NCBI RefSeq assembly: GCF_033153115.1
Contig: NW_026889805.1
Coordinates: forward strand, 3,472,001-3,536,000
Source of the DNA: Saccostrea echinata
Taxonomy: Eukaryota
DNA length: 64,000 bases
Direction: 5' to 3'
A model generated the notes under the pieces. It was not told the origin of the DNA. It did not search any database and was given only the letters and a program-made list of their open reading frames with translations. Shown one piece after another: positions 9,237-56,549 of this stretch; the stretch's first letter is position 1; every line of letters starts with the position of its first letter. A program made the translations under genes and the position numbers.

Positions 9237-10141
9237 GGATATATTTTGACAATCTTCAAAAAGAAAATTGATTGTATAGCATATTTTCCTTCTTTTTTAA
9301 TGTTTGTCTGGATATCTTTTCCTTTTTAAGGTATACATGTATATATTAATCTCCTTTCTCAAATTTCTCCTCAATATTAGTGTACATGTACATGTACTTA
9401 TGTAGTCACAAATCACGAAGTTTTGAACGCAGTCAACGTAATTTTTTATCTGTCCCAACTAAAACAATCTAACATGTTCATGGAAGATCTTATTATTGTT
9501 TAATTATCAAAATTGTGTTAAAAATCTAAAACTTGCAATCATGTGAAGTGTTCACGATTACATATACATATATAACTTGAGGAATTTAAAAAACTATTTA
9601 AACACACATAAATTCAATACAAACAATGCGTAAATTCCATCATCTATCTACATGCAAGGTTGTTGACTTATACATGTAGACATTTACATAAGGCTACATT
9701 TGATACAGATGTAGATTATAAAGAATCATGAAGCACGTCATCTAATTCAAGTTACATGGCAATTTAATACATGCGATTTTTTTGTTTAATTGAAAATTAA
9801 TTTGAAAAAAAAATGGCATTATTATCCACATATTCATTAAAATTGCAATACGCATATTTTTTGCTTAGTTTTCATTTGTCAATACATAACAATAATATTT
9901 TCAAACACCAAGGTTACCTTATAAGGTTTGAAAACCCTAGATAATAGTACACTAGGTGAAACAGTAGTAAAATCCGCCTTCTAGAGACAAACCTTACTCA
10001 AAATGTACAAAGTCAAAGTTACCTAAACTTGTGAACTTATATATACAAATAAAAAACCACTAAAAATATTTAACGTCACATGAATATACAAAATGCGTAA
10101 GTTACAAATGTACAGAAGACAACATTAAGAAAAGTGGACAT

Positions 10142-13100
10142 TCAGTTTATCGTGGGTTTAGAGTTTTGAATGACCACTTCACTATATTCCACAGAAGCCG
10201 CTGGAACGTCACTAGAATCCGATTCTTTGTCTTTTTTACTCTTTTTCTTCTTTTGTGGCTTGGTAAATTCAACATCAACATAATTTAACTCTCCGGACTG
10301 CTGTAAATATAGGACAAAATCAATTATTAAGCACCATCAGCAAACACGGGGTGTTTCTAATTTTTTTTTGACACAAACTTTAAATTAGAAAAAAAAAATC
10401 CTGCATTGATGTTCTTAAATTAATTTCTTTAAAAAGAAAATTTAGTTTGATTGCAACCACAGATATTGTTAGGATCCTACCAAACAGCATGCTGAAATAT
10501 TAATCAACAATGTACTATATTTATATTAATCTTAAAACCTAGTGTTGAATCAGAAAGCGTTACCTTAGGATCCCTTAGAGTGGGGGGATACAAAGCTTAT
10601 CCAAACTTTATAAGTCGTATGCTTGCAAGTTTTATATAGCATGCATTTAAAAGCAGTGTAAATAGTATTCTCATGCATTTGTTCTCTATATTCAAAGATG
10701 GAGTTAAACTGAGAAATGTTCAACAGTGTCTGTCTGTCTGTCTGTCTGACAGGAAACTTTATTCTTTACTCCTTAAGAAACTTATGCAATAAGTAGTTTC
10801 AAACAGTATTCTAGTTTCAATAAAGGGATCACAAACATACATATAGTTTTAAAACTGGCAAAAATTCGAATTTGAAAAATTAAACTATAATTTAAATTTG
10901 TTAATGTTGAGTCTTTTCACCTAAAGTATAGCTAGATCTAATAAAAGCATGACTAGTTTGAGCGAGCATAGGATAACAGTGAACATTTAACATTGTTCTG
11001 TAATAACAAAGCTATTTCAGAGCAGTTCTTCAAAGTTTGAACAAGTCATTTGTCTCACATGAGGGGATTATATAAGCCAGCACAGAAGAGGAAAAGAACA
11101 AGGGTTATTCTTCTGGCATTTTCTGCATACAAACATTGCCGATACCCTGAAGGTCACTAAAGGTTTTTCAAATTTAAAATTGACATTTACAAGTTCGAGT
11201 TAAAGAACATAAAAAATCTTCCCTTTTATGGAACTTACCCCCCCCCCCCCCCCCCATACACACACACGCACTTTTTAACTGGACAATAGTTTGGTACAAG
11301 TAGATTTTGAATCCGGCGTTTGACATAATTTGAATGGTGAGCAATATTTTTTTATCACCTCCAGCAATCAAAGTTTAAACAAGGGGTAGCATAAATGGGG
11401 AGTTATACTTTGAGTACTAGCGGACTCCAAATTAGGAGTAAAATATAGCTTATGTGGAGAGTTATTTTCAGTACATGAACTAGTGGATTTCAATATTCAG
11501 TCAGAATGATAGACCACAAATTTTGAGCTACGCAACGGCTGGTAAAAGTGAGTAGTATTTTTGATGGTGCTGGATCAAAACTTTCTAGGTCGGTGAGTAG
11601 TATTTTATTATCTCTTTAGGACATTCAACTGAAAGTCACATGTCTAGCGTTCATTTTTAACCAAAATTACACTAAAAACCACGTATAAGGGCATATTTAC
11701 GTTATAAATTTCTCTGTAGTATCAAAAATACAAATGGTTAGTTCGGGGTAAGTGTTCCGGGATAGAATAGTTCTTTTTTTTTTAGTAAGGAAATTTATTT
11801 CCAGTACTTAATACTATACTCAGGGTGTCGACAAATGAGAAAGGAAGGATAAGCGACCTTTTGTGACAACCTTGCATTGTTAGAATCTTTGGTTTCGGCT
11901 TTCTGTTGTTCATAATCCTTATCGATATCTTCGTACTGTCGTGGTGCCCTTGTCACTGAAAATATAGACAGAATGCAGTAAACATGATTTACCTGCGTAT
12001 TTTTATCAGAAGATATTGAAGTTTAATACTAAGTGTAAATAAAGGGAATACTATACAACTAAAGTATATCATTGAGGGAGTTAGCAAGATTCCAGTTCCC
12101 CAAGGCCAGGACTATTTCCCGAGGCGAAGCCGAGGGAAATGGTCCTGGTCGAGGGGAACTGGAATCTTGCTAACTCCCGCAATGATATACTTTTAACTGT
12201 TTTATTATACCGATACAAATGTAAAATTTAGAGGATTCAGATAGCGTGATTTGAAAGCAAGGAATTAGCTCACTGAACTAACACACGGGGATTAGTCCAT
12301 TCACGTATCATACCAATGTGAAAGTAAAATCTAGAGGATTACGGATAACCGGGAATTAGCTTTCGAAGCAGGGATTAGCCCACTTGACTAACGCACGGGG
12401 ATTAGTCCATTCATAAGGATTTCTAGGGAGTAAGTCACATCTATTTAACGATCTAATGTTATATAGGGAAAAATCAGTAGAGGTATAATAAATGTAATTA
12501 ACAGAGTTTGGAACTTGACTAGGGTCAATTTTAGGACATAGGATACTCAAAAAATGTTAAAGATATATGTTTACGATATGTATATATAGATACTTGATGA
12601 AGTTATCTTTTTTTCAAATGCTAATACATTATCTATAAATGATTTTAAAAATAATTTGAAAAAAGTATTTTTGAGAATATAGTTTTCAGGGACATTAGAA
12701 ATATCAAAGAAAAGGGTAATGGAAAATTGTCATTCTACAGTCAGTTAATAAGTCCACAAAATCTAAACAAGCTTGAAATTCAACCATACTTAAAATTTTT
12801 CCATTTCCAAGAAGCTTCGTTCTTTTTTGACTCAATTAAGAATAAGTGCCCACAAATTACAGATAGAGTTGGCAGATATTGTAATCCAATTATACCAAGA
12901 GATGAAAGATAGTGTATTAACTGCCATACTGTTGTTGAGCATGAATATTATTTTTTATTTTTATGTCCTCTTTATAAACAACTAAGAAGTGAATACTGTA
13001 TACTTTTTAATGATACATGTATATCTTATGAAATTCTTAATCTAGCAGATGTTAATTCAACAAGAAATATTTGTAACTTCATACGTGATGCATTTAACAT

Positions 13101-16100
13101 AAGAAAATCTACATGTATGTGACTATATTTGTATACTGTATGTATGATTTGCGCCACATGTGGTTTTGTCTATAAATAAAATTAAAATTAATTAAATAAA
13201 TTGAAATCGACAGTATATTATTCTACCGGGTATTTGTTATTAATTCAAGCATTTTTAGCGTTTTATTAGACCAAAACTTTATTTGCATATGTTTTATCCC
13301 TTAAACAACAGTTGCGGATTTAAGGGTAGGGGCGCCCCCGGCGCGCACCTCCCTAAAACTGTCAAAGTTAACGTAAACCGCAGTTTCTTCGAGAAAATGT
13401 AAAAATGTCTACTCGGTAGACCTCATTTTTAACCCACAAAATCTCTAGAATCCAGGAGCTTCCGGGAGCTTCGCCCTGGACCCACTGGGGGCCTCAAGGC
13501 GGCCCCCAGACCCCCTGCCTACTTTTTGCGCCCCCCCCCCCCAAACTTCAATTCCTGGATCCGCGCATGAATTAGCAAGCAACAAATGAATGCTTTCTAT
13601 TCATCAGTACTGAGTTTTCTTTGAATATTTTTCCTGAGGTTAAATGGCAGGTTCCCTATGTTGAAATAGGTACATCTGATATATGATTAAATTTTCTCAA
13701 TGTCCAAAAACGTTTTTCATTAGTGTGTTGACTGTCCTTGAGCCACAACATGTGTATCTTTGAACTTTTCGGCAACAATTTTAACCTTTACATTGTTTCG
13801 AAGTAATTCTAATCTTAACATTGTCAGCTTTAATACATTATTTTGGATTAATTTTATAACCTTTACAATGTTTCGCAGTAATTCTAACCTTTATAAATAA
13901 ATTGTTTCAGAGTTATTGTTTAGCAGCAATTCCAACCTTTAAATTGAGTTTTAAGTAATTCTAACATTTACAATGTTTTGGAGTTATTCTAACGTTTACG
14001 TAACCTTTATGTAATTTGGTAGAAGATCTACCCTTTGAACCGTTGTGCGGTATTTTCAACCTTTGAAATATTTCATAATGCCTCTAACCTTTGAAGTGGC
14101 CATACTTCTACCTTCGTATTATTTGTTGTCTAACCTTGGGGGCTTTTGCCGATAATTCTTTTTGGTGGTACTTCTAACCTGTATACTTTTCGGTGGTAAT
14201 TCTAATATTTGTACTTTTCGGTGGTAATTTTAACCCTTGTACTTTTTGGTAGTAATTCTTACATGTGTACTTTTCGGTGGCTATTCTAACCTCATTACTT
14301 TTTGGTGATAAATTCTAACGTTTGTACTCTCAGGTGTTAATTCTAATTTTTTTTTATTTTTTGGTGGTCATTCTAACCTTTGTACTTTTTGGTGGTCATT
14401 CTAACCTTTGTACTTTTTGGTGGTAATTCTAACCTTTGTACTTTTTTGTGGTTATTCTAACCATTTTGGTGATTATTCTAACCTTTGTACTTTTTGGTGG
14501 TAATTCTAACCTTTGTACTTTTTGGTGGTATTTCTAACCTTTGTACTTTTTGGTGGTAATTCTAACCTTTGTACTTTTTTGTGGTTATTCTAACCATTTT
14601 GGTGATAATTCTAACCTTTGTACTTTTTGGTGGTAATTCTAACCTTTGTACTTTTTGGTGGTAAGTCTAACCTTTGTACTTTTTGGTGGTAATTCTAACC
14701 TTTGTACTTTTTGGTGGTAATTCTAACCTTTGTACTTTTTGGTGGTAATTCTAATCTTTGTACTTTTTGATGGTATTTCTAACCTTTTTACTTTTTGGTG
14801 GTAATTCTAATCTTTGTACTTTTTGGTGGTAATTCTAACCTTTTTGGTGGTAATTCTAACCATTTTGATGGTAATTCTAACCTTTGTACTTTTTGGTGGT
14901 TATTCTTACCTTTGTACCTTTTGGTGGTAATTCTAATCTTTGTATTTTTGGGTGGTAATTCTTACCTTTGTACTGTTCCTGTGCCCCTGGGTCTGGTTTA
15001 TCATCCTCGTCCTCTGGATGGCATTCTTCATATGTATGTTTCCTCCCTGCAACTAAAATAAATCAAATAGCATTATTTTACTTAAAGCTTAAGATGGCAT
15101 TAGTGTTTTTGTTAATAAATATTGGATCTCCCATGATTTATGTGAGTGGTTATAATTCAATGGGAATCTGTTCTCTTTAACTGTGCTTTTTGATATCAAG
15201 TGGGCCTCCTCTTTCTTTAAAATATGTGAGCATGTTGAAGGAGCCTTTGCTGGAATATTCTAAGAAATCAAAGTTCATTCGACGGCTTTTGGGCGGTAAG
15301 TACACAAGTCCATGAATTGTTTCTTCATTAGCGTGTTTATGTAATGCACGAAACTACCAAACGAGTATTTCAAAGTTCACATTTAAGTAGACGACATTTT
15401 ATTGAGCAAGTCACTTAAAGACTAAAACTTTTCTCACGACCTATACTGACGTGGCACTGTAGGCTATTGACTTTATATTGATATAAATTTGATAAATACA
15501 TCTATAGCATTCTGTGAGTAGATAAAGTACCAATTTGATAAATCTGTAACGACAGAGGCTAGGAATTTGACTAGATACATTGTATTTTATGTTAAATAAT
15601 TTCTCTGGAACAAGGAAATAACCTAGATGATAAGATTGGTATAGCTTATAATTCAAACATTTTTTTCTGATTCAATTCAATAGGAAATCGGGCAAAAAAG
15701 ATTGACATTTCCTGCTTTACCACCAAGTGTTTTAACCACATATAATGCATACTTATAGACGATCATTAAAGTAGAGTGATGAGACTGCATTGTGAAAGAG
15801 GGTCGTAGAACACAGAGGGATATCGGTACTATTCGGAATTCTAAACTTCGTCATCGAATCACGATTCGAATTTTGAGAGATGTTAGTTCAAACCGCTATT
15901 CCAACATGCTTATATAGATCATTTATGGATCATTTTTATATCACCGGTATATGTTTCTTTTGAAATAGAGAGCTACTATTCATTTGTATGGATCTTATAC
16001 TTCATTTCCTGCTTTAAAAAACACTCATTAAAATGATATTGTTTTCCGACATCATTGGATCCACATGCAGAACTTGACGATTTATTCATGTTTATAAACC

Positions 16101-18277
16101 GACTCCACTAGCATCATTAATATTACACTTATCTACCTGTTATTGTATTGGTTGTACATGTGTACCTACCTGACCACCTGGGGTCTGGTTCATCTAGAAG
16201 ACAGGTAAAAAAAAAAGCATGGTTAGATTTTGTCACATACCAGAAAATAGTAAATGTGTTTAGACAGTGCTACATTTTACCCAAGATTCACATACAGCGA
16301 TAGAAATGCAGTTTATTGTATGCGTTAAAAAGGGATAGCAAAGCAAAATTATTATTAACAGACAATATCATGGAAGAAAACAAATCAATATTCAATTCCA
16401 TTAAAAGATTTTCTTAGATGGTTTGAGTTAGCTGTGTACATACAACCAATATTTTTTTAAGAATGTGTAGAAGGTTATCGGTATTCTTTTTTAATTTTTA
16501 AGACAGAAGCGTGCATTTTTAACACAACCCCGTTTACACTTCCTTAAATATAGATTAAATTTACACAGGGAAATTAATATTGATAGTCTGGAAAACAACT
16601 AAGACAGAAGCCTTTAGACCCTTTCCCTGCTCTACTTTTTCACAAAAAAAAGCGCACTCCATGAGTTATATATATTGTATTAGTCGGAAGAAATTGTTAA
16701 AGAAAAACCCCTATACAGAGTATAATACATATATAGACGGGCAGGTGCCCGTTTGTTGCGGTAGGAGTTCCTTACCTTCCTTTCCGTTCGCAGCGTCATT
16801 GTTAGTTGTCTTTTTCTTCGATCCTGAAAGATCAAGAAAATTAGAAATTCATTACGCTCGAAATTTTATTCTGCTTTTTGCAGGAAAAGAACCCCTCGAA
16901 CTTTTAATGGTAGGGGTAACCCTATATTGACATTACCATTAGGGGACTCAAGTAAGACTTGAGAGCATTTGGGGTTCTTGAATAAAAAGATGAATTGGTA
17001 ACGGTTTTGGTTAGATGTTCGGATATTGCACGGGTTTTTTGTATAAAAAGATTTAATTGAAAACTGCACTCCTGTAAATATCTACAACCTCAGAGAGAGA
17101 GAGAGAGAGAATGAGATAGAGAGAGACTGAATACTATACGTGTGTAAAGATCTACTGAACTTTTCAAAAATATGGTCAGACGTTTGACCAACTTGGTCGA
17201 AAAGACAGTGAACGTACGGTTAATTACTAGTTAAGGACAAGTCTGATCTTACTAAAAAGATAAAATTATCAACTTGAGATACATGTCAGGGTTTTTCAAG
17301 GGTTTTCAAAGTTAAACAGACGCTTATCTATTAATATATACTGCAACTGTGAATTTTACATGTAGCGTTTGATCTGGCTGCCACTGTCTAACACTGTGTC
17401 ACTAGTTTCCGTGGTATACAAGCTGACTCATTATTGTATATATAGATGATGCCTGATATACTTTTCAAATTACATCTACAATTCAGTTAATCTTAACGAA
17501 CAAAATAGCAGTGATTTAAAACTCGATCATAAGATCAATTTAACAATAATATACACCTGTGATACATACTACATATTTCCTTATTTCGAGTACACTTGCT
17601 TCGGTTTAAACGAGCTGTTATACACTAGCTTCTAGTTANNNNNNNNNNNNNNNNNNNNNNNNNNNNNNNNNNNNNNNNNNNNNNNNNNNNNNNNNNNNNN
17701 NNNNNNNNNNNNNNNNNNNNNNNNNNNNNNNNNNNNNNNNNNNNNNNNNNNNNNNNNNNNNNNNNNACCAAATCCTACCAATGCTTTAAGTTTAGCCCAA
17801 AATGTCATTTTCTGTGCTGTAACCACACGGCTCACATGAAAACTTATCCAGAAGTTAAACAACTATCAGATTATCGAAGTGAAAACACGACAGACGAAAC
17901 AAATACATGTACAAGTCGTCACCCAAAACAGGAAGTATATCGGAGAGGCAACATAGGGGATATACTTCATATAAACACAATTACAGGGTTTATTTGACTC
18001 ATATTGTACGTACACTGTATAAGAAAAACACGGCCACTAAGTGTCATTGCTCAAAGGCACTCAGTGAAACATAAAGCCATGTCAGCAATTATAAAATGTA
18101 TACCATTGTTTATTCTGTGTACATAGGAATATTGTTAACACCTGTGCAGAGTTTATATAGATAAGTAATGATTCGTACAAGACAAGACAAACAACCTGAT
18201 AGAGACGAAGTTGTACCATCACAGCAAGGTTCATTTCACCAGGATATTACTGTACACACACACACACACAGACCCTC

Positions 18278-18314
<37 letters not shown>

Positions 18315-21300
18315 CTCCCTCACACACACACACACACACAAGAGACACTTTACCTTTCGCAGAACCTAGGCATCCTTTAAAATTAGCACAACAAAACATC
18401 GTTACCCTCCCTTCCACTAGAATTCTGTAGTTCATTTCATTTTTTGACGTTACGAAAATAAATATGTCAAAACAAGACCTCAGGTAATTGGGTCAGATGT
18501 AATTGATGACAGAACATTATTTTGCTGGCTGCTTATAACTCCTCGACTAGAAGCTATTAACGGAGAGAGAAAAGACATAAAAACTCCAAATATCATAAAA
18601 CTTGTTACATTATAAGTTTAAATAATATAGATGATTGGTTTTTATCTACCTACTTTTTAATTTGACACAAAAAGTCAAATGACTGTGTTTGACGTTATTT
18701 TTACAACTCCAAGGTAAAACTAAAAATTGCTGTAAAACCCCCAGCTCAGGTAGGTCAACTTCAGAGAGGCTTAATTTATTAATTTATCGTTCCGTTTATC
18801 TATTTCCTATTTTTTTTATTTAATTGACCAAAGTTAAACCTCAAGACTGGCATAACTATTCTTGTAGAAATCCCTAGGATTGATATCATGTTCTTGAATT
18901 TAATAGTTGGAGGTAAATGCATTTAGATGGCTCCGTTTTACAAAAATTATGTCAGAGTTATCTTTCTTAGAGCAAAGTATTCGAATATAGGTAGAGTTTG
19001 TTTCTGTTAAGAGGGCTGGGTGGTTGTGGCCATTTTCAGACTATATTGATCTCCTTTAGAAGAAGAGCTCCATATAAAGATATACAAAAATTATCAAATT
19101 TTAAAACTAAAATGTATGAAATTTTTGTTTGCCAAATGATAGTTGACAGCTTAAGATATCATATCTAAAAAATAAAGTTATATCTGATGGTTAATTTGTT
19201 GACCCCCCAGCCTCCTTAAAGAAAAATAACATTGCTTTTTTCCTTGCCTCTGCTGTATATCAACACTAATCAAACAATAATGACCACTTTTGAAATTCAT
19301 TACTAAGAAATCTCCATCGTCTTAAAATTTAGTGGAAATAACCAGAATAAAGAACTGTTCTCTTTTTCTAGTTTGTTTTTGTAATTGTATTACCTGCACT
19401 ATTTTACAGGTCCTTTTCTAAAACCTCTATACGGATATACATTGTATACGCATTTGTTAACAAAAAAATCTCTTATATTTGATTCGATGGATCATTCTGT
19501 GACACTCCTTGCAGAAACTTTCTACAGTTGGAAAAAACTGATTTAAAACACAGTTGTATGTCCATACTAAGATACTCATTTCCTTTCCAGTTAAAGTGTA
19601 GCGATTACCATCAAAATTTCACCAAAATATTTCACTTGTGGAGATACATACAAGCATAAACATTGCTACAAATTTAAGTCAGATAATGCTGTTTCTAAAA
19701 TCATCGTTGCCAATCTCAAATTCCGCCGTCGCTTGCGTGGCGCAGTGGTTAGAGCGTTTGCTCTAGAGTCGCGGAGTAAGGAACTGATCCTTATACGTCG
19801 CAGTTTCTAATCCCACTGCGGGATGTGGAGACCGCTCCTTTGGATGAGACCGTATAAACAGTGTCACAGTAGGTGCTGGCACGAAAAAGACCCTTTGAAC
19901 ACTGCTCAAAGGCCGAAAGTTCCGATACAGGTCTAAATTTGCAGCCCTTCACCAGCAAGTGGCGTCTCAATATGAGTAAAAAAATCTCGAAGGGACGTTA
20001 AACAGACAAACAAACAACAAAAAAAAATCAATTTCCACTAAAATAAAATGGCGCCGTTTCTATACTGCTTGGCCTCACATACAATTGGTTAATTGCAATA
20101 TTAAATTGTATTAAAAACTTAAACGGTGATATGAATGCAGGGATTTGCCAAGACGACAAAAGAAAAGATACTGGAAAGGCATGGTGCCCCTCTAGGGGTA
20201 TGAATGCAAATTGAGATCTAGATGAATTGTGGGCACTTGTTACAAGAGACTCCATGTTCCCACATATGAATTTATGTATCTATAAGGATATATGGGAGTC
20301 ACAAGACAGATTATGAAAAGATAGATTGATCTTATCATGATAAGGAGAGATGAAAAATCTCGGACCTCAGTTATATAAGAGTAAAACGAGGAGCATACAG
20401 TAATAAGTTCTGGGAAATTTAAAATTCGACTAGCAAAACTAAAAAAGAGGGAACAATATAGCAGTTAGTACAATTTTCAAAAACTGAAAGACTTACAAAT
20501 CCAAGAAGAATTCAAAATCTAACTAAAAAATTGAAGTGTAGACACCACAGAAGATCTTGAATGAGATATAGGCAAATATATTTTCTAAAAGACATGTGAA
20601 GAAATCCTGGGAAGAAAATTATGTCTATTGAAAGAAAAAAATGTGACAAAAAAATGGCAAAAATCTTAGAGGAAAAAGTATGTCAAGGATAAGATTAATA
20701 ATGAAAAAAAAAGATTGCAAAAGAAGTAGTTTTAAACAAAATATCATGAGTTAGACAAAGAAGTCAAACATAGCTACGAGCAAGAAGAAAAGATTATAAA
20801 AGAACTTACTCTGGAAGCTGAGCTGGAAGATCATATGGGAGACAATACTCACTGCACATATAACCTCACAAAAACTCAGAGCAAGAGAAGACCAAGTAAA
20901 ACCAAGCCGTCAAAGAAAACCAGGTCCCAACACCATAAACTGAGAATAGACTTAAGTCAAAATTTCAAATCAATATAATAAGTGATTTTGATAATGAAAC
21001 AAAATTTTCATCATTTGTTTGAACTTAAATATAATACAAACCTGCCAATTTTTATGCACATATGTTAAATAAAACTCAAGATATTCAAAATCAAAACTTT
21101 GGCTTAAGTATGTTCTCAGTTTATGGTCTTGAGGCCTGAAAGATATGTTGGTAAAGCTAGATGAATACCTTGAAGAAGGGAGGGGCACTTCAAAATGATG
21201 TACTAAATAGACCAATTGACACCAGAGAGAAAAACAGTATTCCTGAATACAAAAATAGATGTAAAGATTGACAGATGCGAAGAAGGAAGTAGAAACAGCA

Positions 21301-24300
21301 ACTGGTATTAATTCTTTTAAATATGGAAAAACAACAGGAATTGACAGAATACTACCAGAAGTATTGGGGTTATAGGACGAAACGTTGTGGAATATATGTA
21401 TAGACTGTCTTAATAAAATCGGACGAGTCCAAATGAGAGGAAGAAAGAACTGAATGTATAACTACGTGAACCAAAGAAGGGGGGTCTTAACCTGTACAGA
21501 AATTGAAGAGGCATCACATACCAATGTGTAGCAAGAAAGATTCTAAAACCTATTATTTCGAAGAAAGAGGTAAATGACAAAGTTTTGAGAGAGAGATTTA
21601 GAATGATCAGTCACTAGTCACTGCACTGACTACCTGGTAGGCATCATGGATCACTGTTACAATCGTAAACATGATCAAGATACGGCATAAAGTGAATTCC
21701 TAAAAAAAACTCTGACAGGATCATTTGCTGTACAAGGTTGAATCCTATCACTGACTATATTCCTGATAGCTGTAGGCTAGGCTACGAGACAATCCTTTAT
21801 TAAAAGCCAGTAAGGAATTCGGTGCCCCCTTCCTTAAGAGTTTAGATGACATAGACTTTGCAGAGGACCTTAGACTTAATTCTTTAGGATAAGAGAGAAG
21901 AGAAAACAGATGAAACAGGGTTAAAGATAAGGCTTAACAGGCACATAGCAACAGGTGGGGAGCTGCCTCCCTTCCACTTTTTTCCAGACTTTTTTTACTA
22001 TTTGAAATGTTAATTGAAAGGCCGGTTGGCCCACAACTTTTTGTTGTAGAATACCGGTAGTAAAATAAGGGTTTTGTCGTAGTGTATGAATAAAATTTGG
22101 TACTGAAAGAAGTTGGAACCTACCTGCCCCCCCCCCCCCGCAAAATAGGATTTTCGGACAATTTATCCCTTTTTTTTTGCTTGTCAAGTTTTTTCCAGGT
22201 AAGTTGAAATTTTTTTCTCTGGCTGCCCCCCCCCAACTTTCAGAAACGATGCTACGTCCCTGCTTAAGTTCTATACCAAGAAAATAAAGTTAATGAGAGG
22301 CATACCGAGAATGGAGTAAACTTTCAAAGACGGACATATAGAAAAGGTCAATCAATTTCCTGTTAGTATCATAAACTAATCAGAGGAACTACAGAAAGCA
22401 TTAAAACCAAAACAAGCAAAGGAAGGCAGGCTTTATCAGCCGGCATAGAAGTCAACAACTCTATCAGAGGACACCAAAATTAGATCAATTAACACCAGCG
22501 TGAAATCAATCTTTTTTATGGCCTAAAGTCCTGGAGATTACATATAAATAAAAGCCTACAATAGTAATTCCTCGTTTATCGTGAACAAGTGCCAACGATA
22601 CATATGCAGATTTGTTTGCTCACAACCATAAACAATAGGTGGCTCTGGATAGCAAAGAACCGGCAGTGAAACAGCTTAAAAGAAGAACATGGCAAGTTAC
22701 ACAAACCTGACAATGCCAACATCAAACAATCTTCAAGACGGATCAGAGAAATCGGAAAAGAAGTTGTCCATTACATAGCTGAAGGACAAGAATAACAGAA
22801 TAAGATGAGATTGGAACAAACTGGACGGAGACAAAAGAAACAGCTCAAACAGGACCAGGTGGAGGACAACTGTGACAACCTTATATTTCACAATCCCAAA
22901 CAAAAAATACTATAATAAAACTATAGTTAACTATAGTTTACTATAGTTAATCAAAGTTTCAAAGTTATCACTATAGAAAATCAAAGTTTTAACCATACTA
23001 AATCAAAGTTTTCATAGTGATCACTATAGTATTTCAAAGTTTTCATAGTTATTACTATAGTGTCATAGTGATCACCATAGTAAATCAATGTTTTCAAAGT
23101 TATCACTATAGTAAAGCAAAGTTTCAAAGTTATTACTATAGTTAACTATAGTTTTCATAGTGTCAAAGTTATCACTATAGTTAACTATAGTTTTCATAGT
23201 GTCAAAGTTATCACTATAGTTAGATATAGTTTTCATAGTGTCAAAGTTATCACTATAGTAAACTATAGTTAACTATAGTATTTTTTGTTAGGGTGTAAAA
23301 TCTGAAGATAACGAACAGTCATCAATCTCAGAAATCCAGTAAACAAAATGAATCATGCACAGGGCAAAAACACGGACCACTGGAAATACCAGTGCAGGGA
23401 TCAGGTGCCTAGGAGGAGTAAGCATCTCCTGTTGATCGGTCATATCCGCCGTGAGCCCTGTGTATTGATCAGGTATACGGAATACTCTGTAGTCTTATTT
23501 AGTATAAAAGCAATGACCTAACTTATGGTATCAAACATGTCAGACAAAATAAGACCCAACGCTAGGCTGTATTTACAAACAAGGTTATAATAACGACCGT
23601 AGAATTGGCGAAAAGCTGACTTTAAACGGGAATGTTGAAATCCTTGTAACATCAACTTATTTGTCAGTAGCTTGCCTAGGTTTAAAAATTGATCGTATTC
23701 AGAGCATGCTGTTGCTCACAAAGAACGTCAATTTAGAGGATTAAGTCATGTTCGATCGGTCCAGCAGTATCAATTAAAAATGTCCATGTCCTTACCACGT
23801 CTTTACCCCCGTAAACAGAGTCCCTTCTGTTGCATTTTTCCTCTCAAGGATTTTTCTTTTTTAGCACCTGAGCAAAACGTAAGTGGAAGCAGCCGTTTGT
23901 AAGTCGCAAGCTATACCTTCACCTTTTCACTGGGCATGTGAAAAAATGGGTCCCATATACTGAACATCTTTGGCGCTGGTCGCAGCCTTACGCCAAGAAG
24001 TACATGAATGTAAGTGTAGAATTACTTTTTGGGTAACTGCAAATGTTTCAGGCAAAATTAGCCATTTACTGCTCTTTGCAGTAACTGATTTGCAGATTCG
24101 TTCTTTTGAGTACTAAAAAACCACGACAACGTACTTAAGCACATGCTTTAATACTGCATATATACGTTAAATAACAATTTAATCATAAGCCAGACAAAAA
24201 TTTGATTTAATATCTGAAAGAATTTTAAAAACGTTGTTGCTAAAAATATTGAAAATACCATATATAGAATACGAAAAATAGCGCCGTTTTGAAAATTAGA

Positions 24301-25517
24301 TCGGCCATTTTGAATATGGCCGAAACTTGAATGGCAAACGATATTTCCTATTCAGAAACTTGCCAAGGAACCTACATACCAAATGTGTTGCTTGTCTCAT
24401 CAAGTGATTTTTTTCTTTTCCAACTATCCTCTCCAATGTTAGAAATACGGAATTTAACCAGTAGGGTCTCCATACATGTTACTGATTCTCTTTCTCGACG
24501 AACTTGAAAGGAGGGTACTCCCTCCCTAATTTGCCTTTTACAAAATATCATTGGGGGGATGTACCTTCTATGAACCGCTTTCCTTCACTTATATGACTCT
24601 TCCTGTCAACTTAAAAGAGATCTGCGTTTCCGGGGGGTGGGGGGGGGGTAAAGTCATTTTTAGTTACTTAACTATGTAAATTTAATTACTCTGAAAATTC
24701 CTGGAGGGGGGTATCGAGTCCGGACTCCCCCCCCCCCTCCATCTTTAGATCCTCGCATGCATGCAAAGGATTCTCTCTTTTAATTCATTCACAAGCATGA
24801 AGAAATGATACGTATATATAGAACTTGTTTGTAATTGTTTGCTTAAATTCTACAGTTGCTGTAGAGTAAGGCCTGATGTTTCATCATTTCAATGACTCAC
24901 CCATAATTAATTTGTAGGGGAAGTACAGATTAAGTTGTTTTGCTGTGCTTTATTTAACATATTTTATTCCTTCTTATGATAATTATATAGAGGAATACTG
25001 TCGTGCGGAAGTTTATAAAACTGAAAAAAAGTTTTCGGCATGAATATCATTATATGTTTATAGTTAAATCAAAGCTATACCTATTGATAGATGTATATGT
25101 AGATGCGTCCTATTGTAGATGGTTTTAATGGAAGAAAGCTTATGAAACAAAGTACTAGCTAAAGTAAAAACTGAAATAGAAATAATCTTTATTGGGTGAA
25201 AAACCTTTCTGTCTGCAATGATTTGATCATTAAATCGAACAATACTTTATTTTCCTTCATTCTATATAAAATAAGTGTACATATAAGGAAATTAATCAGA
25301 ATAAACACTTCGTAAACACAGGAAATGGACTGTGTTCAATGATGGTCGACATTGTAATACATAGCATAAAGACAGGCTTAGATACTGCCATTCTAACACA
25401 GGCACAGCTTAATTTTACTCATATACTCTATTCTTATTGAGAGAAAACATTTCTACATGTAAAGTTTACATTAATTAACATCCAAAAGTTTGAAAGTTAC
25501 ATACCTGTCCCACCCAT
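10142..25517 (-). CDS. Predicted lipid-anchored, disordered phosphotyrosine adaptor with tandem ITIM-like motifs (isoform A, N-myristoylated, ~142 aa)
   Basis: Manual exon chain with GT/AG sites and matching phases: 25517-25505 (MGGT, donor GTATGT), 16823-16776 (GSKKKTTNNDAANGKE), 16193-16170 (DEPDPRWS), 15052-14966 (VAGRKHTYEECHPEDEDDKPDPGAQEQYK), 11955-11858 (VTRAPRQYEDIDKDYEQQKAETKDSNNARLSQK, weak donor GTCGCT), 10300-10142 (QSGELNYVDVEFTKPQKKKKSKKDKESDSSDVPAASVEYSEVVIQNSKPTIN*). Total 429 nt and open throughout. The N-gap at 17639-17766 could hide an exon. Confidence 0.65.
12045..12491. mobile_element. Long hairpin element with GAGGCGAAGCCGA core and internal direct repeats
   Basis: Arms ~12061-12120 and ~12134-12193 around a 13-nt loop, followed by two diverged ~100-bp direct repeats (cacggggattagtccattca) bounded by ttattatacc (12202) and ggtataataa (12482). 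Confidence 0.6.
13309..13569. mobile_element. G/C-rich MITE of the GCGGAT-TIR class
   Basis: cagttgcggattt...ctggatccgcgcatg termini and an internal cttcgccctggacccac...gggggcc..ggccccc motif. Confidence 0.6.
13780..14973. repeat. 28-bp minisatellite starting at the adaptor exon 15052-14966 donor
   Basis: Unit ctaacctttgtactttttggtggtaatt (period 28, e.g. 14373 and 14401). It is well conserved at 14360-14970 and decays toward 13780. Confidence 0.9.
17639..17766. other. Assembly gap inside the adaptor gene
   Basis: Run of N. Confidence 1.
18255..18340. repeat. Interrupted (CA)n microsatellite
   Basis: CA runs separated by ccctccct spacers, immediately intron-side of the donor at 18353. Confidence 0.9.
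18354..18399 (-). CDS. Alternative first coding exon of the ITIM adaptor (isoform B, MFCCANFKGCLGSAK, Cys-rich)
   Basis: ATG at 18399, 46 nt, phase-1 donor AAAG|GTAAAG that joins in frame to exon 16823-16776. Splicing the 25505 exon onto the acceptor upstream of this exon gives an immediate stop (GAA TTC TAG), so the two behave as alternatives. Confidence 0.5.
19011..19215. mobile_element. TTAA-flanked MITE (Kolobok-like)
   Basis: ttaa|gagggctgggtggtt...gaccccccagcctcc|ttaa. Confidence 0.55.
19724..20020 (+). mobile_element. tRNA-headed SINE
   Basis: A-box GTGGCGCAGTGGTTAGAGC, degenerate B-box, central ggatgagac...tggcacg..aaagaccc segment and a 3' GGGACGTTAAAC followed by an (AAAC)n tail. 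Confidence 0.7.
20120..22880 (+). mobile_element. Degraded RTE-like non-LTR retrotransposon (APE endonuclease + RT relic)
   Basis: Frame-broken motifs in the expected order: GDMNA (~20126), FPH..IYKDIW and IDLIMI (~20255-20342), KTTGIDRILPE (~21328), PKKGGLNLYRN*RGIT (~21471), VQG*ILSLTIF (~21730), LDDIDFAEDL (~21842). A G/C-rich MITE interrupts it at ~21940-22262. Confidence 0.75.
22895..23293. mobile_element. Foldback-like element built from ACTATAGT/TCAAAGT subrepeats
   Basis: Terminal inverted repeats CCC(A/T)AACAAAAAATACTATA...ACTATAGT. The interior is modular, with ~37-bp units ttatcactatagttaactatagttttcatagtgtcaaag. Confidence 0.7.
23296..23720 (-). mobile_element. Penelope-like 3' fragment, more diverged
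   Basis: gggatcaggtgcctaggaggagtaagcatctcctgttgatcggtca is the reverse complement of the motif at ~34000-34050, followed by a relic of the same RT tail (cgtagaattggcgaaa, aacttatttgtcag). Confidence 0.55.
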
Positions 25518-25519
25518 TG

Positions 25520-25758
25520 TAATACAAACAGCTGATACTAAAAAGTTCTCTCCAATCTGCGGTTCTCTTCGTTGAAAATTTTGAACAGTTTTCAGGTGAC
25601 AAAAATCAAAGACATTAATATCATAATGTAAAGAGTTTACACATACATATAAATATTCCTTTTGGGTCAATTGTAAAACCTAGACAGTTTCTACAAGGAA
25701 ACCTCGGTATATACACTCCTAACAGAGCACATCCTTCCTCTACATAGCGTGTGTGAGT
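25520..25758. promoter_or_regulatory. Putative bidirectional promoter between the two adaptor genes
   Basis: Minus-strand ATG at 25517. A plus-strand donor GTGAGT at 25753 could pair with the acceptor at 26564 ahead of ATG 26597. TATA-like segments lie at ~25646-25655 and ~25709-25715. Confidence 0.35.
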
Positions 25759-26125
25759 AACATTGTATTACACTAATTACTCGCCATGTCACTCACGTGA
25801 TCTCTCAACAATTTGTCACAGTATCCGCCATACAAAAGACGTACACTAAAGAAAGTAAAAGAGTATATAACTCTAACAGGAAGTATCAAATCCCTGATTA
25901 AAGTTTTAACAAGACATTAAGGTGTTAGGACAAGGAGGAAGAATAATTCAAACAGTGTCACTGCGTACTGGGAACCTCGACTTCATATTATATATGACCT
26001 AAGTATGAATCAAATTACACCCGGTATTGATAATAGATATAATTGAAAGCTTTTTAAACTCCTGTAAACTCTAGACGCTCTATATTTTAACGAGGCTCCT
26101 TACTTCCTTGGGCCGTTGTTATGTA

Positions 26126-26466
26126 TGTAATGGTTTGAGCAGTGGATATCGGCCAGGGTAGCTCAGTCGGTAGAGCACCTGACTAGTGATGCAGGGGTCC
26201 CGGATTCGATTCCCGATCCAGCCATACATTTACAGGTTTGGTGCCGTTGACCATCCCTGGACTTGCAGGTGAAATCCTGCCAGGGGCTAATAAGAAATTG
26301 GGTTGTGTCTTCGAGGGCGAAGACAATTAAGGAGGGAGGAATGTAATGGTTTGGGCCGTGGATATCGGCCTGGGTAGCTCAGTCGATAGAGCACCTGACT
26401 AGTGATGCCGGGGTCCCGGGTTCGATTCCCGGTCCAGCCATACACATTTTCTCCTTTCCTGTTACA
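26126..26466 (+). mobile_element. TRIM (miniature LTR retrotransposon) with tRNA-like sequence inside each LTR
   Basis: LTR1 26126-26234 and LTR2 26342-26466 (TGTAAT...TTACA). PBS TGGTGCCGT at 26239 is complementary to the tRNA-His 3' end. PPT AAGGAGGGAGGA precedes LTR2, and a 4-bp TSD TGTA flanks the element. Each LTR has an A-box (TAGCTCAGTCGG) and a B-box (GTTCGATTCC) like segment. Confidence 0.8.
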
Positions 26467-26596
26467 TGTATATAAGCCCCCGATTTGACGAGGTTGATGA
26501 TGAAACGAAAACTCAGTATAAACATCTCTTTCCTTCCGCTGGTTTTTGGTTTTGTATTTCACAGTCTAGGTCCTGTTTTTATTAGGAATTAATCAA

Positions 26597-31419: not shown

Positions 31420-32842
31420 ATGAATTGCAAAATTATTTACAGTTTATTTGTGGTACAATTTTTCCAGCTTTATACTGAGGGACAATCTACAGGTACATAT
31501 TTGCTTTGTTTTTCTCTTTTCTAAAAGTTATAGACCCTTAAATTTTAATTCTTATGTTTTTAAATGTAAACTTTAAGATGTATTTCAACAAACTGTTCAT
31601 CTAGGCCATGGAGGTACGCGATATGTGGTTATGTTTCCGGATGGAAACAGACCAGTGACCAGGGCAGAACTGTTGATGTCGAGTCTACAGGACACGGAAG
31701 TGAGGTTGACTTCCGGTTTTCCTGGCATTGATAGAGTGCTGCAGCTGAAAGCAAACGAAGGCGCCGTAGTCTCTCTTCCTCCAGAAGTGGTGTTAGATGG
31801 GAACAAGAGGGAGGATAAAGGGATCATTATTGAATCGGATTTCCCCATTTATGTTTATGGACATTCCGGTGACGATTGTTGCGCGGGGGAGGGATTTCAG
31901 GCTATCCCTGTTGATTTCTGGGGTACGGAGTACTATACCGCTACCCAGTACAACAGCACGGTAGCTTTAGTAGCAACGGAAGACGATACGGAAGTAAGCG
32001 TCACAAAGGGATTCTGGGGTGGCGTGACCTTTGAATCAATCTATTATGGAATGGGGGAAAATATTACGTTTAATCTCACAGCGGGACAAACTGCGCAACT
32101 GCAAACTCCTAGCGGTTATCTCCTGGGCACCCGAGTGTACTCTAGCAAACCTGTTGGAGTTATCTCCGGTCAGTACTACGCGTCTCCATCCAGTCGGAGA
32201 GCTAAATTTAACCAAATGATTGAATTTATCCCTCCGTCCAGGAGTCTCGGCACGGACTTCATTATTCCTCCTGTGTTTAATTCTACCTACATCAACATAT
32301 ACTACAGCAATCTGGGAGTCGACAATGTAATCTCGACAAAGGGGAAAAACGTTAATCTTTCGAGTAAGTTACAAAGGCGAGGGGGTTCCAGAATCACAGC
32401 CGGGGCCGCCAATCCTTATCACGGCTCCAGCACAGAACCCATCATTGTGACGGCTTCACCTCTTACCATTAGTCCTTTTATGCTCTTTGTACCCTCTCTG
32501 GACCAATACTCAAACAATTACAAATTCCTCACCCCGACAAAAGCGAACCTGACCCATTACATTGTAATCCTCGTCAGAAGCCAGGACGAGAACGGGATCC
32601 GGCTGGATGGGGACAAGATATACTCCAAAATAGAGGGCGTGGATGTTCTGCTCATAAATGAGGTCATATACCTCGTTATTTCAGCGGAAGTGAGTGCGGG
32701 ACAGCACCAGGTTTCACATCAGGATCCTAATGTAAATTTTGGTTTAATTTTGTATGGCTTTGACGACACTCAGTCCTATGCTTATCCTGCCGGGCTTGGC
32801 TTGCCTTCCGCCTCGTCTCCAGCAGCTGTAATGCCTCTATAG
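31420..32842 (+). CDS. Secreted IgGFc-binding protein N-terminal domain (FCGBP-like) protein, ~436 aa
   Basis: Exon 1 31420-31492 encodes a signal-peptide-like segment (MNCKIIYSLFVVQFFQLYTEGQST, phase 1). Exon 2 31605-32842 is in frame with the 405-aa ORF. Family-like motifs: EGFQAIPVDFWGTEY, SSKPVGVISG, MIEFIPP, PFMLFVPSLDQY, GIRLDG, HQVSH, FGLILYGF..QSYAYPAG. Confidence 0.85.

Positions 32843-51766: not shown

Positions 51767-56549
<4,783 letters not shown>

Follow-up and report, generated by a model that had tools for sequence, protein, structure and literature searches.

Acylated phosphotyrosine adaptors are known from vertebrates, namely HGAL/GCSAM, C1orf150/GCSAML (Pfam PF15666) and C11orf52 (PF15147). 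Many genes make use of alternative first exons (PMC13082882), and alternative N-termini set membrane association in the KChIPs, with cytoplasmic, myristoylated, palmitoylated and transmembrane forms (PMC3973911). Sperm hexokinase HK1S has an acylated alternative start (PMC4736023), and a hydrophobic N-terminus was reported among the isoforms of a mollusc protein, Aplysia PDE4 (PMC6567041). A gene which resembles each of these systems to some degree was analysed here in a window of 64,000 nucleotides (the whole stretch of DNA studied) from Saccostrea echinata (assembly GCF_033153115.1, contig NW_026889805.1, positions 3,472,001 to 3,536,000). The gene, RefSeq LOC133173835, belongs to a genome of 923 Mb, is read from the minus strand and is annotated only as uncharacterised; its last exon in the window was a 100% match to the RefSeq proteins of this locus. 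With a probability of roughly 0.7, it would encode a small membrane-tethered phosphotyrosine adaptor without a transmembrane segment, whose anchor and output are set by two separate RNA choices. For the exon architecture alone, in which one of three first exons precedes a shared exon 2, a cassette exon follows and a pair of donors switches the frame, confidence is very high.

Transcript evidence consisted of the contigs of four runs (at most three samples from two studies, the RNA nature of all six runs considered being guessed), and 15 of 83 joints were listed. Contigs favour major forms and drop rare ones, and thin cover or a missing joint is no evidence of absence. Five GT-AG joints were bridged by contigs in 4/4 runs: 25505->16823, 16776->16193, 16170->15052, 14966->11955 and 11871->10300. 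All exons are on the minus strand, and positions are those of the window.

The first-pass annotation had proposed that two alternative first exons switch the lipid anchor. The myristoyl-type and di-Cys starts were borne out by contigs, annotation and conservation, but the choice proved to be three-way. The coding part of exon 1a (25505..25517) was placed exactly: 13 nt encode M-G-G-T plus one base, end at a GTATGT donor in phase 1, and are joined to acceptor 16823 of exon 2 (16776..16823), a common acceptor exon of 48 nt, defined by contigs, which supplies the Gly5-Ser6 and KKK patch common to all three N-termini. MGGTGSKKK is built only by this splicing, as had been claimed, and was identical letter for letter in RefSeq isoforms P0011 and P0013. 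Since junction 25505->16823 was bridged in every run, the myristoyl-type N-terminus exists as a spliced sequence. At motif level it is predicted to be an N-myristoylation signal (Gly2) with a basic patch; Gly2 and Ser6 were invariant wherever exon 1a occurred, and the type was annotated in 5/5 oyster sets. One contig (X1 record 7) ran unbroken from exon 1a out to 25957, and the leader may be about 440 bases long with 10 short upstream open reading frames. Ten ATGs stand upstream of the exon 1a start, all closing before it, and in-frame stops occur there too. The two motifs exceed chance expectation: when 16824-26500 was simulated 300 times with an order-2 Markov model, a myristoyl-type mini-exon appeared in 4/300 sequences, a CC-type one in 0/300 and both together in 0/300, in a test defined after the motifs had been seen. 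Repeated tRNA-like short elements were found upstream of exon 1a (26130-26440).

Exon 1b (18354..18399) was also located exactly: its 46 nt (15 codons plus one base, with Cys3, Cys4 and Cys10) end at a GTAAAG donor in phase 1, and joining to acceptor 16823 gives MFCCANFKGC..., letter for letter as in RefSeq P0002 and represented in orthologues P0031 and P0056. Junction 18354->16823 was supported by this RefSeq isoform (X2), the orthologues and one Logan protein, but was absent among the 15 of 83 joints listed; the contigs of the four runs hardly covered exons 1b and 1c at all. The Logan-only protein, P0043 of a related oyster, has the Cys exon joined to the body on a 1241-base transcript-sized contig, which is necessarily spliced. 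That exons 1a and 1b cannot be joined in frame was not strictly correct, since four AGs (next base 18416, 18410, 18374 and 18365) would permit it, but these are pyrimidine-poor (6-9 of 15) and no listed isoform uses them. An in-frame ATG is also present upstream at 18435; annotation and orthologues begin at the 18399 position instead. The three cysteines lie on a moderately amphipathic segment, and S-palmitoylation is predicted. As for occurrence in related species, the di-Cys exon was annotated in three of five oyster sets (Saccostrea echinata, Pacific/Portuguese and eastern oysters), so that both exons were recovered in oysters, but neither was seen in seven mussel-type proteins, mostly cluster representatives. 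Cys3, Cys4 and Cys10 were invariant wherever the exon was present, and its length and phase were kept across three genera.

The third first exon, exon 1c, had been missed in the first-pass annotation. It begins at 17808 and runs out of readable sequence; the readable part (17767..17808) holds 14 codons, MTFWAKLKALVGFG, while its 3' end and donor are unreadable in the window, as is part of intron 1. This start, of a Cys-free amphipathic helix type, matches that of RefSeq P0001 and has orthologues in five oyster sets and in mussels, and 14/14 readable codons agree with RefSeq isoforms X1, X3 and X4. The helix type was annotated in 5/5 oyster sets, and the Logan-only protein P0052 has the helix exon joined to the body on a 905-base contig. 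In annotated proteins the helix and Cys starts are equal in length. Exons 1c and 1b were identical at 27 of 42 bases without gaps. Apart from the self match, none of the other 42-mers in the window that begin with ATG (2525 in all) scored as high, the runner-up reaching 24, and a tandem duplication of the two exons is therefore suggested. Mussel-type orthologues had a similar W-x-K-[LV] start in 6/7 proteins, and 4/4 tested were significantly amphipathic (p 0.013-0.028). Since helix-type starts occur in mussels too, the helix start is likely older and the Cys start a derived copy. We infer that the helix exon and the tail predate the oyster-mussel split and that the Cys exon arose by duplicating the helix exon.

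The body is common to all three starts. Exon 3 (16170..16193) is a 24-nt in-frame cassette, included or skipped, with joints in 4/4 runs and annotated isoforms with and without it; it resembles part of exon 4 (DEPDP versus DKPDP), perhaps another small duplication. Exon 4 (14966..15052), bounded by contig joints at both ends, carries the first conserved Tyr motif of the alignment (YEEC). A second AG lies 6 bases inside it, giving a tandem acceptor 15052/15046, and a tandem array of a roughly 30-base unit (14180-14960) begins right at its donor. Exon 5 (11858..11955) carries YEDI (YEEI in Pacific oyster) and has two donors, 11871 (short) and 11858 (long). The coding part of the last exon (10142..10300) was drawn from translation and conservation; contigs cover the 3' untranslated region (9483..10141), with three poly(A)-type hexamers (9790, 9768, 9504). 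CAGCAG at the last exon forms a tandem acceptor 10300/10297; annotation includes a product of its alternative use, P0016, which is shorter by one residue.

It had been assumed that all isoforms end in the same Tyr-motif tail. This was not so: a 13-nt donor shift in exon 5 removes the C-terminal motif pair. Donor 11858 reproduced the 142-residue RefSeq P0013 exactly, and the long forms (142-153 residues) add two motifs like the immunoreceptor tyrosine-based inhibitory motif (ITIM); the long frame of the last exon reads LNYVDV (10288-10271), a lysine run, VEYSEV (10192-10175) and a stop. Donor 11871 shifts the frame to a stop five codons into the last exon (10287-10285), the remainder becoming untranslated, and yields a 90-residue protein with only two acidic YE[E/D]x motifs. 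It was this short form, without the ITIM-like pair, that was bridged in 4/4 runs, and the annotations of Pacific and flat oysters include short forms as well. Joint 11858->10300 was not among the 15 of 83 listed, and two intron-retaining contigs (X1 record 3, X5 record 27) cross 11858 unbroken, a weak hint of low donor use there. A transcript whose stop codon lies in the last exon as a rule escapes nonsense-mediated decay, and the short transcript should therefore escape it.

Four tyrosines were invariant from oysters to mussel, in YEEC, YE[D/E]I and the two ITIM-like motifs. YEEI is the preferred ligand of Src-family SH2 domains. In mussels the acidic Tyr unit YE[E/D][V/I] was present in two or three copies, varying between isoforms. 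LNYVDV and VEYSEV, found in the long isoform only, fit the ITIM consensus S/I/V/L-x-Y-x-x-I/V/L (PMC11518702). Both hexamers were invariant in 4/4 oyster sequences, at 6/6 positions each, whereas overall 77/142 positions were, and the tail of the mussel orthologue (E 3.4e-6; hhalign probability 97.4) keeps RLSQ, LNYV.VEFTKP and the second Tyr; for these reasons the long frame is, judged from sequence, under constraint. In one mussel isoform, 28/28 tail residues could be encoded by this exon read in a shifted frame (shuffles: mean 0.40, maximum 0.57). The mussel shifted frame differs from that of the oyster, so tail removal may have two origins or may have been rebuilt. The intron just past the second donor (11857-11800) is also conserved in read-through (VAYPSF here, VAYPSS Pacific-type, VAYHSF flat oyster, VAYPFF eastern-type), and this stretch may act as a splicing control element or provide a third C-terminus.

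Of the 18 Logan-only proteins counted, 11 were myristoyl+short, 4 myristoyl with intron 5 read-through, 1 Cys+long, 1 helix+short and 1 without a first exon. The count leaves out fragments starting or running inside introns (P0003, P0009, P0065-P0068, P0081-P0088, P0090 and P0094); P0058, P0061 and ENA records were not counted as Logan-only rows, and 15 of the 16 members of one cluster were listed. It could be argued that myristoyl+short is the one isoform that counts, and that Cys exon and long tail are minor by-products or annotation constructs, given that this form was bridged in all four runs and made up 11/18 of these proteins, and that the Cys exon is unannotated in 2/5 oyster sets. Such a reading is quite improbable when set against the retention of the Cys exon's length, phase and cysteines across three genera, and of the tail frame as far as mussels though it is untranslated in the short form.

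Two RNA choices on one gene might also be linked. Promoter choice could be coupled to the distant 13-nt donor choice, the palmitoylated form being a phosphatase-recruiting inhibitor and the abundant myristoylated form without ITIMs an activator or decoy, but this extension of the adaptor reading is rather unlikely. The Cys start went with the long tail in 1/1 row, versus 1/16 other rows (Fisher p 0.12), which is a thin hint; when rows also having genome sources were included, the figures were 2/2 versus 1/18 (p 0.016), post hoc and from rows that are not independent. An older annotation also lists a Cys+short form (P0037).

The protein is charged at 37-40% of residues in the isoforms scanned and is predicted to be disordered; AlphaFold gave nothing stable (pTM 0.13, mean pLDDT 59). 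In this it is like BASP1 and GAP-43, which are disordered, charged and N-terminally acylated; the N-terminus made by exons 1a and 2 is similar to that of myristoylated BASP1 (GGKLSKKKK), and exon 1b has Cys at 3 and 4 like the palmitoylated Cys3/Cys4 of GAP-43 (PMC7494789). BASP1 and GAP-43 are two separate vertebrate genes, whereas one oyster gene has both kinds of start. The gene could encode a protein of the GAP-43/BASP1/MARCKS kind, organising acidic lipids, calmodulin and the cortical cytoskeleton, with the tyrosines secondary, and the commonest form, being short and without the ITIM pair, would fit. This alternative is unlikely. No match to the GAP-43, BASP1 or MARCKS families was obtained in Pfam at E up to 1; and the conserved core consists of the Tyr motifs, of which mussels repeat YE[E/D][V/I]. 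The nearest language-model neighbours, moreover, were phosphotyrosine adaptors: HGAL, C1orf150 and C11orf52 scored 0.84-0.87 for the oyster protein (172-184 shared features) and 0.75-0.78 for the mussel one, values below 0.9 serving as a lead only.

No Pfam family reached the cut-off for oyster (n=7, E up to 1) or mussel proteins (n=5, E up to 10); the best matches, RHEX (E 0.014) and DUF6550 (E 0.034), were rejected on that ground. PDB sequences gave 0 matches. A search of 1.84 billion representatives returned 15 matches, and 25 with a widened profile, with no relatives outside oyster- and mussel-type sequences; P0091, a repeat-rich record, was dismissed as a relative. Within the range that the search scored, its own genome holds a single copy of the gene: there was 1 match and then 5, all exons of LOC133173835, with no paralogue among them.

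Paired ITIM-like tails are typical of receptors, in oysters as well (PMC11841013), and with part of intron 1 unreadable the exons described here might be just the cytoplasmic end of a receptor whose transmembrane part is encoded in upstream exons, further 5' or in the unreadable stretch. Such an upstream transmembrane exon had been named in the first-pass annotation as the case that would overturn its proposal, and it found no support: no returned isoform has one, and the best 19-residue hydropathy among four isoforms scanned was 0.03. The receptor reading is extremely improbable, since each of the three start codons is preceded by in-frame stops and the exon at the unreadable stretch is a short, non-transmembrane one. 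A search with the last exon among 27 candidates of 92-2000 residues gave 9 hits, none of them above 153 residues, which is weak evidence. The nearest upstream genes found are separate ones: a single 421-codon open frame with an IgGFc-binding domain (31577-32842, plus strand; PF17517, E 1e-40), divergent from the adaptor gene, and a TMEM26-like gene (44712-46846, minus; PF09772) with a long charged N-terminal region. An exon of a ubiquitin-conjugating enzyme (56217-56549, plus; PF00179) and an ACTATAG-rich tandem array (22900-23280) were also observed in the window.

For the membrane-tethered adaptor, a working model could be formulated as follows. One of three first exons is spliced to the common exon 2 carrying SKKK. 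The exon 1a product is predicted to hold the membrane permanently and weakly through its Gly2 myristoyl signal and basic patch, the exon 1b product reversibly through palmitoylation of its Cys3/Cys4/Cys10 segment, and the exon 1c product without an attached lipid, through a Trp/Leu/Lys amphipathic helix and the lysines. Lipid attachment, separate promoters and different membrane domains for the N-termini are what we infer from these starts. The second choice would fall on the exon 5 donor, giving a short form seen in contigs or a long form known from annotation and conservation. The Tyr motifs would be phosphorylated by a tyrosine kinase at the membrane, probably a Src-family member; the acidic ones would dock SH2 kinases or adaptors in all forms, and the long form alone might also recruit tandem-SH2 or inositol phosphatases (SHP/SHIP) and damp signalling. 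An oyster two-ITIM receptor was reported to interact with SHIP2 (PMC11841013), therefore the downstream machinery exists.

Several observations weigh against this model. Most anchor-by-tail combinations are putative, coming from annotation pipelines, which combine exons from short reads. The support for junction 18354->16823 is of three kinds: automatic annotation, orthologues and, in a related oyster, one Logan protein. The Cys exon was absent from the listed isoforms of S. cucullata (n=5) and O. edulis (n=9), and neither a myristoyl- nor a Cys-type start was seen in the seven mussel-type proteins, mostly cluster representatives. The oyster helix moments (0.47-0.55) were not above those of shuffles of the same residues (p 0.13-0.33), and the helix was not modelled by AlphaFold (pLDDT under 50). 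The long form was rare in assemblies (1/18 Logan-only proteins versus 11/18 myristoyl+short), no long tail is annotated in O. edulis (0/9 isoforms), and TEYADV, the second of the mussel motifs, departs from the strict ITIM consensus at position -2.

In the published literature no paper on LOC133173835 was found under six locus identifiers, and none on a free, lipid-anchored ITIM adaptor in bivalves; few subscription journals and no supplements were covered, and omics tables may use other identifiers. The isoforms are already in RefSeq, unnamed, while the gene family and its combination of features are undescribed in the literature searched. The component pieces are each of known kinds; it is the three-way anchor choice together with an on/off, likely inhibitory tail that is undescribed there. 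Three membrane anchors on an identical body would provide a natural experiment on signal routing by the anchor alone, exon duplication followed by cysteine gain would be an evolutionary path to a new anchor, and the frame switch would remove an inhibitory module in oysters and mussels alike.

As in the KChIPs, several first exons are spliced to one common exon, by contigs and annotation. Unlike the oyster protein, KChIP, HK1S and PDE4 carry folded domains, and no frame-switched inhibitory tail is described for them in the sources consulted; there, KChIP myristoylation is confined to KChIP1 variants (PMC3973911), and no single gene with myristoyl, palmitoyl and helix starts was met in these sources. 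Bivalves have many ITIM-bearing receptors, and the oyster receptor CgNCAM1 likewise has two ITIM-like motifs in its C-terminal tail (PMC11841013). Unlike such receptors, the oyster adaptor has no signal peptide, ectodomain or transmembrane segment, and its action would be in trans, exerted at the inner leaflet.

HGAL and C1orf150 differ in some respects. No match to PF15666 or PF15147 was obtained for oyster (0/7, E up to 1) or mussel proteins (0/5, E up to 10), none of the six oyster-protein tyrosines has Asn at +2 as in the GRB2-binding pYxN motif (0/6), and nothing linking C11orf52 with myristoylation was found in the literature searched. One HGAL chain bears both myristate and palmitate, whereas in the oyster these predicted lipids are alternatives from different first exons; the oyster tail pair also conforms to the ITIM consensus, and a frame shift can take it away. 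The likeness is nevertheless extensive: like HGAL/C1orf150, the oyster protein is small, lacks a transmembrane segment, has a Gly2 myristoyl site with a polybasic cluster (at sequence level, in exon 1a isoforms) and four Tyr motifs ending in a tandem pair, and has splice isoforms which change the lipid sites (PMC11518702). In the Pfam comparison no sequence homology was detected. By analogy the oyster protein likely works most like HGAL/C1orf150, and if this is true, it would be an invertebrate counterpart to them in design.

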